This document shows positions 2,692 through 4,582 of a stretch of 5,346 nt of DNA, piece after piece. The position numbers and the translations under genes were made by a program. The notes beneath the pieces were generated by a model. It saw only the letters and a list, made by a program, of their open reading frames with translations. It did no database searches and was not told the origin of the DNA. Source of the stretch: Escherichia phage ECO95 1-6-1; sequence record OR845275.1, one strand, 5' to 3'. The stretch's first letter is position 1. Each line of letters begins with the position of its first letter.

Positions 2692-4245
2692 TCACCATCC
2701 CAGCGAAGGACCATCCAGCGTGCGTTCCTGTATTTCCGGCTGACGCTCCCGTTCCAGGGATAACGCATGTTCGCGCTCCTGTATCAGCCGTTCCTCTCTT
2801 ATCTCCAGTTCTCGCTGTATAACTGGCTCAAGCGTTCTGTCTGCTCGCTCAAGTGCTGCACCTGCTGACTCAACTGCATGACCCGCTCGTTCAGCATCGC
2901 GTTGTCCCGTTGCGTAAGCGAAAACATCTTCTGCAATTCCACGAAGGCGCTCTCCCATTCGCTCAGCCGCTGCATATAGTCCTGTTGCAGCTGCTCTAAG
3001 GCGTTCAGCAAATGTATTTCCAGCTCTGTCACTCTGTGTCACTCCTTCAGATGTACCCACTCTTTCCCCTGAAAGGGAATCACCTCCGCTGATTTCCCGT
3101 ACGGAAGGACAAGGAATTTCCTGTTCCCGTCCTGCACAAACTCCACGCCCCATGTCTTCGCGTTCAGTTTCTGCAATGTCTCTTCCTGCTTCCTGATTTC
3201 TTCCAGGTTCGTCTGTATCCGTCCGCCAAGATACCAGAGCGTCCCGCCACTCGCGGTAAACAGGAGAAAGACTATCCCCAGTAACATCATGCCCGTATTC
3301 CCTGCCAGCTTTAACACGTCCTTCCTGTGCTGCATCATCGCCTCTTTCACCCCTTCCCGGTGTTTTTCCAGCGATTTCTCTGTCGAGGCTGTGAACAGGG
3401 CTATAGCGTCTCTGATTTTCGTCTCGTTTGAGGTCACAGCCTCGCTGACAGACTCGCCGAGCTTCCTGAACTCGTCGTTCAGCATTTTCTCTGTAGATTC
3501 GGCTCTCTCTTTCAGCTTTTTCTCGAACTCCGCGCCCGTCTGTAAAAGATTGCTCATAAAATGCTCCTTTCAGCCTGATATTCTTCCCGCCGTTCGGGTC
3601 TGCAATGCTGATACTGCTTCGCGTCACCCTGACCACTTCAAGCCCCGCCTCTGTGAGCGCCTGAATCACATCCTGACGGCCTTTTATCTCTCCGGCATGG
3701 TAAAGTGCGTCTATACCGCGTGTAACGCTCTCAGCAAGTGCCTGTTTCGTTTCCGGCAGGTTATCAGGAAGGGTCAGCGTCCGGCGGTTCTCCGGGGCGT
3801 TGGGGTCATGCAGTCCGTAATGGTGATTCACCAGCGTCTGCCAGGCATCAATTCTCGGCCTGTCTGCGCGGTCGTAGTACGGCTGGAGACGTTTTCCGGT
3901 CTGTAGCTCCATGTTCGGAATGACAAAATTCAGCTCAAGCCGTCCCTTGTCCTGGTGCTCCACCCACAGGATGCTGTACTGATTTTTTTCGAGACCGGGC
4001 ATCAGTACACGCTCAAAGCTCGCCATCACTTTTTCACGTCCTCCCGGTGGCAGCTCCTTCTCCGCGAACGACAGCACACCGGACGTGTATTTCTTCGCAA
4101 ATGGCGTGGCATCGATGAGTTCCCGTACTTCTTCCGGATTACCCTGAAGCACCGTTGCCCCTTCCCGGTTACGCTCCCTTCCCAGCAGGTAATCAACCGG
4201 ACCACTGCCACCACCTTTTCCCCTGGCATGAAACTTAACTATCAT
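2692..4245 (-). CDS. mbeA: MbeA relaxase (ColE1-type MOB relaxase, 517 aa)
   Basis: Translation from ATG at 4245 begins MIVKFHARGKGGGSGPVDYLLG with the catalytic Tyr19 and contains NHHYGLHDPNAPEN (the atypical HEN-type metal-binding signature of MbeA). The ORF track's upstream extension to 4293 (MSCAGCVWPSGNRGRG) is probably not translated. C-terminal third is E/R-rich low complexity. Confidence 0.9.
   Translation of the reverse strand: MIVKFHARGKGGGSGPVDYLLGRERNREGATVLQGNPEEVRELIDATPFAKKYTSGVLSFAEKELPPGGREKVMASFERVLMPGLEKNQYSILWVEHQDKGRLELNFVIPNMELQTGKRLQPYYDRADRPRIDAWQTLVNHHYGLHDPNAPENRRTLTLPDNLPETKQALAESVTRGIDALYHAGEIKGRQDVIQALTEAGLEVVRVTRSSISIADPNGGKNIRLKGAFYEQSFTDGRGVREKAERESRIYRENAERRVQEARRVCQRGCDLKRDENQRRYSPVHSLDREIAGKTPGRGERGDDAAQEGRVKAGREYGHDVTGDSLSPVYREWRDALVSWRTDTDEPGRNQEAGRDIAETEREDMGRGVCAGREQEIPCPSVREISGGDSLSGERVGTSEGVTQSDRAGNTFAERLRAAATGLYAAAERMGERLRGIAEDVFAYATGQRDAERAGHAVESAGAALERADRTLEPVIQRELEIREERLIQEREHALSLERERQPEIQERTLDGPSLGW
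2799..3032 (-). CDS. mbeD: MbeD mobilization/exclusion-family protein (77 aa), nested out of frame within mbeA
   Basis: GTG start (complement of 3030-3032) preceded by GGAG about 9 nt upstream; starts 6 nt after the mbeB stop. Same frame as mbeB, different from mbeA. Architecture matches ColE1 mbeD as I recall it. Confidence 0.7.
   Translation of the reverse strand: MTELEIHLLNALEQLQQDYMQRLSEWESAFVELQKMFSLTQRDNAMLNERVMQLSQQVQHLSEQTERLSQLYSENWR
3039..3557 (-). CDS. mbeB: MbeB mobilization protein (172 aa), nested out of frame within mbeA
   Basis: ATG at 3557 preceded by AAGGAG ~7 nt upstream. Predicted hydrophobic segment GMMLLGIVFLLFTASGGTLWYLG consistent with membrane association. Size and nested position match ColE1 mbeB. 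Confidence 0.8.
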   Translation of the reverse strand: MSNLLQTGAEFEKKLKERAESTEKMLNDEFRKLGESVSEAVTSNETKIRDAIALFTASTEKSLEKHREGVKEAMMQHRKDVLKLAGNTGMMLLGIVFLLFTASGGTLWYLGGRIQTNLEEIRKQEETLQKLNAKTWGVEFVQDGNRKFLVLPYGKSAEVIPFQGKEWVHLKE

Positions 4246-4582
4246 CCCGCGTCCCCTGTTCCCTGACGGCCAGACGCAGCCGGCGCAGCTCATCCCCGAT
4301 GGCCATCAGTGCGGCCACCACCTGAACCCGGTCACCGGAAGACCACTGCCCGCTGTTCACCTTACGGGCTGTCTGATTCAGGTTATTTCCGATGGCGGCC
4401 AGCTGACGCAGTAACGGCGGTGCCAGTGTCGGCAGTTTTCCGGAACGGGCAACCGGCTCACCCAGGCAGACCCGCCGCATCCATACCGCCAGTTGTTTAC
4501 CCTCACAGCGTTCAAGTAACCGGGCATGTTCATCATCAGTAACCCGTATTGTGAGCATCCTCTCGCGTTTCATCGGTATCAT
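4235..4582 (-). CDS. mbeC: MbeC mobilization accessory protein (up to 115 aa; true start may be an internal Met)
   Basis: First gene of the mbe operon, 3' end overlaps the mbeA start by 11 nt. Part of this region (cccgccgcatccataccgccagttgtttaccctcaca...) matches the sequence I recall upstream of rop in pBR322. RBS for the 4582 ATG is weak, so start is uncertain. Confidence 0.8.
   Translation of the reverse strand: MIPMKRERMLTIRVTDDEHARLLERCEGKQLAVWMRRVCLGEPVARSGKLPTLAPPLLRQLAAIGNNLNQTARKVNSGQWSSGDRVQVVAALMAIGDELRRLRLAVREQGTRDDS

Follow-up and report, generated by a model that had tools for sequence, protein, structure and literature searches.

Two reading frames under selection in the mobilization module of plasmid pC, a ColE1-type locus with mbeB and mbeD inside the relaxase gene

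The DNA considered here, sequence record OR845275.1 (Escherichia phage ECO95 1-6-1), is referred to as the window, meaning the whole stretch of 5,346 nucleotides (nt) that was analyzed. It carries a mobilization locus in which two genes, mbeB and mbeD, are read out of frame inside the relaxase gene mbeA. Over its full length the window is 100% identical to NC_003457.1, plasmid pC of Salmonella enterica serovar Enteritidis (megablast, PLSDB), and we therefore speak of pC throughout. Our reading, held with high confidence, is that the region is a ColE1 (MOB-HEN/MOBP5) mobilization module in which MbeB and MbeD are translated from sites of their own within mbeA. An earlier interpretation made from the letters alone (hereafter the sequence-only reading) had placed mbeA, mbeB, mbeD, and mbeC, with both nested genes in an alternative frame wholly within mbeA; the list of open reading frames (ORFs) and the sequence return exactly these coordinates and show the alternative frame to be +1.

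The mobilization genes and their start signals

The coding features of the locus, in window coordinates, are the following.

2692 to 4245, minus strand (start 4245): mbeA, MOB-HEN (MOBP5) relaxase, 517 amino acids, identified by its ORF, NCBIfam, Pfam, and identity to ColE1
MbeA residues ~1-230: N-terminal nuclease domain, carrying Y19 and H97/E104/N106
MbeA C-terminal ~290 codons: read over mbeB and mbeD, then a 35-codon tail
3039 to 3557, minus strand (start 3557): mbeB, accessory mobilization protein, 172 amino acids, ATG start, in frame +1 inside mbeA from codon 230
2799 to 3032, minus strand (start 3032): mbeD, mobilization/exclusion protein, 77 amino acids, GTG start, in frame +1 inside mbeA
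3564 to 3569, minus strand: Shine-Dalgarno sequence of mbeB, AAGGAG, 6 nt ahead of the mbeB ATG
3042 to 3045, minus strand: Shine-Dalgarno sequence of mbeD, GGAG (within AAGGAG, 3047-3042), 9 nt upstream of the GTG and abutting the mbeB stop
4235 to 4582, minus strand: mbeC (mobC), ribbon-helix-helix nicking-accessory protein, 115-amino-acid ORF from the ATG at 4582

Taken at its longest, the mbeA ORF begins at 4293, but all homologues begin with MIVKFH, which corresponds to 4245. The product scores 881.8 bits with the NCBIfam model NF047848 relax_MbeA_E1 (cut-off 500) and 30.6 with Pfam Relaxase (gathering score 24.6). Tyrosine occupies residue 19, the catalytic position of motif I in ColE1 MbeA, and motif III reads HQDKGRLELN, with H97, E104, and N106 forming the HEN signature instead of the three-histidine motif, both as described in the sequence-only reading. 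Y19, H97, D99, E104, and N106 are invariant in a nine-sequence alignment extending to Acinetobacter and Moraxella plasmids, and every invariant column of this alignment precedes residue 259. Conservation of Y19 and of an HQD-x4-ELNF motif has been noted in ColE1-like plasmids (PMC9282650), the HEN motif has been described, and MbeA is a verified relaxase (PMC3394729, PMC3447787). The ColE1 protein nicks oriT site-specifically and attaches covalently to the cut strand, according to Varsaki et al. 2003 as related in PMC3394729 and PMC3447787.

Both nested products fall into the families whose names they had been given, above curated thresholds. MbeB matches Pfam MbeB_N PF04837 (76.9 bits, cut-off 22, E 1.4e-21), with no matching model in an NCBIfam search, while MbeD matches Pfam MbeD_MobD PF04899 (119.8 bits, cut-off 21.6, E 5e-35) and NCBIfam NF033829 plas_excl_MbeD (119.4 bits, cut-off 60, E 6e-35). 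The alignment with ColE1 that had been proposed as a check is gapless and of equal length for all four proteins, at 97% identity for MbeA (13 amino-acid differences), 97% for MbeB (5 differences), 99% for MbeC (1 difference), and 99% for MbeD (1 difference). Residues 89-107 of MbeB form its one strongly hydrophobic segment (Kyte-Doolittle 19-residue maximum 1.85), which is probably membrane-spanning. With MbeA, MbeB, and MbeC as queries, the Protein Data Bank yielded no meaningful match by sequence.

Each nested gene has its own Shine-Dalgarno sequence, as had been claimed, and in both cases the signal is conserved. At the mbeB position nine enterobacterial loci have AAAGGAG, AAGGGAG, or AAGGGGG. 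Here the MbeA motif LKGAxYE (codons CTG AAA GGA GCA TTT TAT GAG) holds both the mbeB Shine-Dalgarno sequence and its ATG, so these codons are under two constraints at once; L225, G227, Y230, and E231 of the motif are invariant columns of the nine-sequence alignment. The mbeB stop (TGA, 3041-3039) is followed by 6 nt, CACAGA, and then by the mbeD GTG at 3032. At the mbeD Shine-Dalgarno position 7/9 enterobacterial loci have AGGAGT, GGGAGT, or AGGAAGT, the other two (L010 and L011) carrying G-rich tracts placed differently ahead of mbeD. In the 11 PLSDB loci studied in detail the mbeB-mbeD spacer measures 0-6 nt, and GTG starts mbeD in pC and ColE1 alone; the relatives begin the gene with an ATG in this very place, in support of the GTG assigned in pC. 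One of the relatives, CP063734.1, is mosaic with respect to pC: identity is 99% in the MbeA N-terminal domain and 92% in MbeD, and drops to 53% in MbeB and 44% in the MbeA segment over mbeB. This pattern suggests that recombination replaced the mbeB portion of its mob operon.

MbeC is recognized in its N-terminal ribbon-helix-helix region by PF21983 NikA-like (40.6 bits, cut-off 27, 3e-10) and toward its C-terminus by PF05713 MobC (46.2 bits, cut-off 23.2, 6e-12). Its gene overlaps the mbeA start by 11 nt (ATGATAGTTAA, 4245-4235), in agreement with the sequence-only reading, and 66/74 relatives share the same 11-nt overlap. The start of mbeC is less settled. That reading had begun the gene at 4582; in-frame ATGs also lie at 4573 (112 amino acids) and at 4558 (107 amino acids), the latter being the RefSeq choice. 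A K-R-x-K/R stretch just upstream of the "MLT" Met of MobC is kept across relatives while its codons vary at the third position (CGC, CGG, CGA, CGT), which argues that the stretch upstream of this Met is translated. In most relatives a TTG or ATG, preceded at 5-6 nt by AGGAGG, stands seven codons upstream of this Met, and in one ColE1-like relative (L018) GGAGG stands 6 nt ahead of an ATG matching 4582. The 348-nt mobC given by the authors of pSNC3-Kan likewise matches the 115-amino-acid choice (PMC9282650). From these comparisons a start upstream of 4558, at 4582 or 4573, is favored. The upstream position thus stands in part, with 4573 as a candidate and with a weak Shine-Dalgarno sequence in pC itself.

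Selection in both frames of the overlap

The comparison set comprised 11 PLSDB loci, with 27-97% MbeA identity, and 80 loci from one GTDB contig scan. Homologues of both mbeB and mbeD are nested in frame +1 in 69 of the 73 loci with a complete relaxase ORF, and in 68 of these the mbeB start lies exactly 688 nt past that of mbeA. This layout persists at low protein identity, since among relatives other than ColE1 identity to pC is 29-53% for MbeB and 30-92% for MbeD.

Per-phase pairwise differences in nine loci gave a flat profile in the overlap, which is suggestive only and was superseded by a two-frame classification of substitutions. This was made on 18 minimum-spanning-tree pairs with identical layouts, each substitution being scored as silent (S) or changing (N), in mbeA and then in the +1 frame. 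Thus SN changes are silent in mbeA only, NS changes are silent in the +1 frame only, and NN changes alter both. Expected counts were derived from all possible single-base changes, and the values below are observed/expected (O/E).

N-terminal domain (mbeA coding alone): SN 2.93, NS 0.36, NN 0.27
mbeB overlap: SN 0.83, NS 1.68, NN 0.67
mbeD overlap: SN 1.07, NS 1.55, NN 0.64
35-codon tail past the mbeD stop: SN 2.19, NS 0.37, NN 0.67

Counted directly, the mbeB overlap has 186 NS and 98 SN changes, against a roughly equal expectation. The enrichment of NS changes in the overlap indicates that the nested frames are under purifying selection and are more constrained there than the mbeA frame. Past the mbeD stop selection reverts to the mbeA frame. 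Additionally, the mbeA frame has no stop over mbeB and mbeD in 12/12 divergent loci, whereas shuffles that keep the MbeB and MbeD proteins introduce a mean of 2.4-9.6 mbeA-frame stops (probability of 0 stops at most 0.05 per locus). The selection on the tail and the stop-free frame together argue that the relaxase frame is read through the overlap too. Both frames are maintained across the overlap, and the dual coding goes beyond chance. The sequence-only reading had described the two genes as nested inside the relaxase gene; this is correct as to location, but the wording suggests a primacy of the relaxase frame, and in the overlap it is the nested frames that are under the stronger purifying selection.

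The direction of overprinting might even be reversed, with mbeB and mbeD primary and the C-terminal ~250 residues of the relaxase a secondary frame extended over them. We regard this as a possible scenario, to be entertained tentatively. In such a case selection on the C-terminal frame of MbeA would act chiefly to keep it free of stops, its product perhaps forming a flexible link to the conserved 35-residue tail. On this view the nesting would be old as well: an Acinetobacter plasmid carries, in the same frame, a first nested ORF that is weakly MbeB-like (E 2e-7, pairwise BLASTP). The second Acinetobacter nested ORF had no match to MbeD by pairwise BLASTP, and neither MbeB nor MbeD was matched when the ORFs nested in the Acinetobacter and Moraxella plasmids were scanned with Pfam. 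The depth of the nesting outside Enterobacterales is thus only partly supported by these comparisons.

A more radical alternative holds that the nested frames alone matter in the overlap, the functional relaxase consisting of the N-terminal ~230-270 residues and the rest being tolerated read-through over older mbeB and mbeD genes. The balance of SN and NS in the mbeB overlap fits this view, as the mbeA frame is barely constrained there, and so does the protein itself: the MbeA segment over mbeB retains 27-44% identity in relatives apart from ColE1 (95% in ColE1 itself), compared with 56-99% for the relaxase domain across nine enterobacterial loci. The overlapped part is also 51% Arg, Glu, Ala, and Gly, the invariant columns all lie before residue 259, and a Neisseria plasmid, if its relaxase is taken as frameshifted, does with a split one. 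Nevertheless, a dispensable frame should have collected some 2-10 stops over ~250 codons in each of the 12 divergent loci and has none, and the full-length mbeA ORF is kept in 69/73 loci. Furthermore, the 35-codon tail is under purifying selection in the mbeA frame, so ribosomes must read through the overlap to reach it, and in the mbeD overlap SN exceeds NN (1.07 vs 0.64). We therefore consider this alternative unlikely, and retain the reading in which both frames are coding.

The Neisseria case is the Neisseria gonorrhoeae cryptic plasmid NZ_CP131619.1, in which the relaxase occupies two ORFs (243-872 and 841-1593) and an MbeB_N-positive ORF (956-1543) lies inside the second piece. Either a frameshift has interrupted this relaxase, or the same overlap is arranged differently here.

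Mobilization of pC and the remaining alternatives

Upstream of mbeC lie the putative substrate of the relaxase and the neighboring gene rop.

4952 to 4972, no strand assigned: oriT (bom) nick-site motif TATACTGGCTTAACCATGCGG, ~370 nt upstream of mbeC, past rop
4622 to 4813, plus strand: rop, GTG start

The nick motif has a single match in the window and 0 in 200 shuffles. It is identical to that of ColE1, and the surrounding oriT segment (4800-4981) agrees with ColE1 at 180/182 nt. In the mechanism that we propose, MbeC would bind oriT through its ribbon-helix-helix fold and help the relaxase MbeA, which would cut one strand at the nick site with Tyr19 as the nucleophile, His97/Glu104/Asn106 standing in for the usual three-histidine metal site. 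MbeA would remain attached to the cut strand, and the DNA would leave via the mating channel of a co-resident conjugative plasmid. MbeB, small and probably membrane-anchored, and MbeD, a coiled-coil-like mobilization/exclusion protein, would serve as accessory factors, both made from their own ribosome-binding sites in frame +1 of the mbeA 3' half, such that ~250 codons would encode two proteins. The literature counts MbeB among the components of the relaxosome and regards MbeD as a putative entry-exclusion protein (PMC5935869). The biochemical roles, the transcription of the operon, and the actual mobilization of pC we infer from published work on ColE1 and its relatives.

It is reasonable to suppose that pC is mobilization-competent, because the four genes are intact and the oriT segment differs from ColE1 at 2 positions; the MOB-suite typing in PLSDB likewise predicts it to be "mobilizable, MOBP". 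In an alternative scenario the module is intact, yet pC is in practice non-mobilizable, or mobilized by few helpers, owing to helper specificity, the lack of mbeE, or its own restriction system. There are precedents: the ColE-type plasmid pSN11/00Kan, with mobC-mobA/BD and a conserved oriT, was not moved by F tra genes (PMC9282650), and a resident restriction-modification system reduced the mobilization of pEC156 derivatives (PMC4743918), pC itself having an Eco29kI-family system. We judge this scenario very unlikely, given proteins 97-99% identical to those of ColE1 and an identical nick motif. Moreover, plasmids of the IncF, IncP, IncI, and IncW groups mobilize ColE1, and in experiments IncP and F tra genes mobilized pSNC3-Kan, a plasmid without mobE (PMC9282650). 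Near-identical copies of pC are found in Salmonella as well as in E. coli, a distribution that a transferring plasmid would be expected to show. By analogy with ColE1, the locus would mark pC, the carrier of a restriction-modification system, as very probably mobilizable, which fits this distribution.

Other observations weigh against our reading of the locus as a working ColE1 module with translated nested genes. pC is without the mbeE and exclusion genes of ColE1, and its Shine-Dalgarno sequences are weak both at mbeC 4582 (GGGG 2 nt before the ATG) and before mbeA. A simple scan found no sigma-70-like minus-strand promoter upstream of mbeC. The start codons of mbeC (4582) and rop (4622) are divergent with 39 nt between them, so the mob transcript would begin within rop or past it, in antisense orientation, or else use an unrecognized promoter. 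The amino-acid constraint on the mbeA frame in the mbeB overlap is weak, as detailed above. Finally, 2.5% of mbeA-synonymous codon shuffles contain a +1 frame that is open for 172 codons or more, which makes the length of the nested ORFs alone weak evidence; the case thus rests on homology, conservation, and selection. On these grounds it is scarcely credible that the internal ORFs are unexpressed chance frames or an annotation habit inside a relaxase gene: this would accord with the shuffles and with the current RefSeq annotation of a near-identical plasmid, which gives mbeA without mbeB or mbeD, but not with the curated family matches of both ORFs, their joint presence in frame +1 in 69/73 loci despite low protein identity, the excess of nested-frame-silent substitutions (O/E 1.68 and 1.55), or the conserved Shine-Dalgarno motifs and start positions.

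Plasmid backbone, annotation, and known systems

Plasmid pC is a circle of 5269 bp. Bases 1-77 of the window are repeated at 5270-5346, so that the window is 77 nt longer; it is the complete pC, linearized inside the replication origin with a small wrap-around of the circle, and the terminal repeat as a biological duplication is ruled out. The plasmid was published in 2002; the reference lists of PMC5864857 and PMC5841774 give it as Gregorova et al. 2002, FEMS Microbiol Lett 214:195. Megablast against PLSDB shows 99.2-99.9% identity to the window for seven more E. coli and Salmonella plasmids of ~5.27 kb. With ColE1, pC has one contiguous backbone in common (window 2487..5346 plus 1..557, at 96% and 92% identity by BLASTN), 3.4 kb that include the replication origin, RNAI, oriT, rop, and the mob genes. 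Outside this backbone lies the cargo, 558-2486. The additional features of the plasmid are listed below.

393 to 498: RNAI (Rfam RF00106)
1755 to 2399, minus strand (2399..1755): Eco29kI-family restriction endonuclease, 214 amino acids, cargo
607 to 1755, minus strand (1755..607): C5 cytosine methyltransferase, 382 amino acids, cargo
2487 to 2515, minus strand: cer-like Xer recombination site GGTGCGCGTAA-TGCGACG-TTATGGTAAAT, with a 7-nt spacer, found by reading the sequence
213 to 371, plus strand (record 94..252): 52-amino-acid "replication initiation protein" of the RefSeq annotation, inside the RNAII primer region

The endonuclease and methyltransferase genes share 1 nt. A search with the cer consensus and an 8-nt spacer gave no match; the cer-like site escaped it because its spacer has 7 nt. 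The homology between pC and ColE1 stops exactly at 2487, the final base of this site and ~200 nt past mbeA, which suggests that the restriction-modification cargo was exchanged through recombination at the Xer site. Mob regions of ~96% identity are found on other ColE1-like backbones with different cargo, including another restriction-modification pair. The 52-amino-acid "replication initiation protein" is annotated in ColE1 and other relatives as well. ColE1 replicons run on RNAII and RNAI and can dispense with a plasmid Rep protein, and for this reason the annotation in pC looks spurious.

Public annotation of the mob locus is inconsistent. In five RefSeq/GenBank records (pC, ColE1, and three relatives) either mbeA or mbeB and mbeD are annotated, never both layers. 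The PLSDB/RefSeq tables for pC, ColE1, and others give mbeB and mbeD and lack mbeA, while a newer annotation of a 99.8% identical E. coli plasmid by the Prokaryotic Genome Annotation Pipeline (PGAP) gives mbeA and lacks both nested genes. With such one-layer annotation, surveys of gene content in ColE1-like plasmids will overlook either mbeA or the nested pair. The MobC of the records probably lacks 5-8 codons at its start.

Assignment to hosts raises a separate matter. Enterobacterial-type MbeA, MbeB, and MbeD are encoded by many short contigs labelled Rhizobium, Arthrobacter, Actinomadura, Streptomyces, Lentzea, Fictibacillus, and others, and on one contig from such labelled assemblies (L015) MbeA is 92% identical to that of pC. 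These contigs probably represent contamination of the assemblies by ColE1-like plasmids, the labelled genera not being the true hosts. Additionally, the Pectobacterium colocasium "chromosome" NZ_CP184271.1 contains, at 4419453-4429486, two complete mbeA/mbeB/mbeD sets ~5.5 kb apart (L048 and L065), which might reflect tandem integration of a ColE1-like plasmid, or else a misassembly.

As an example of dual coding the mob locus is clean and rich in data, and it allows selection to be measured in each frame. The module itself is already known, being that of ColE1 in a published plasmid with a literature decades old, and there is no new biology in it. What is added here is small, namely an analysis of selection, evidence on where mbeC starts, and an inconsistency in annotation, and none of it amounts to a new kind of system. 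This agrees with the sequence-only reading, which had called the arrangement established ColE1 biology: nesting of the genes, a GTG-initiated mobD, Y19, and HQD-x4-ELNF all appear in published accounts of ColE1-like plasmids (PMC9282650, PMC5935869, PMC3394729).

The mob region of ColE1 (NC_001371) has the same gene order, frames, and lengths as that of pC (517, 172, 77, and 115/107 amino acids), and shares with it the 11-nt mbeC/mbeA overlap, the 6-nt mbeB-mbeD spacer, the GTG start of mbeD, and the nick motif. ColE1 differs in having the exc/mbeE region and colicin genes, where pC has the Eco29kI-family restriction-modification cargo instead. In pSNC3-Kan, pEC34B, the ColK/ColA group, and pCS36-4CPA, mobB and mobD are likewise internal to mobA, mobC overlaps partly, and the relaxase is of the HEN type (PMC9282650, PMC5935869); pSNC3-Kan also has the same gene sizes and GTG mobD start as pC, and lacks mobE (PMC9282650). 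Compared with the mobC-mobA/BD operons that other ColE1-like plasmids carry, the divergence from pC is concentrated in the overlap. A broader parallel is offered by mobA-mobB of RSF1010/R1162 (MOBQ), a small mobilizable plasmid whose relaxase gene, like that of pC, has an accessory mobilization gene overprinted on it. In contrast to pC, the RSF1010/R1162 relaxase belongs to a different family with a three-histidine motif, carries a single nested gene, and has a primase at its C-terminus.

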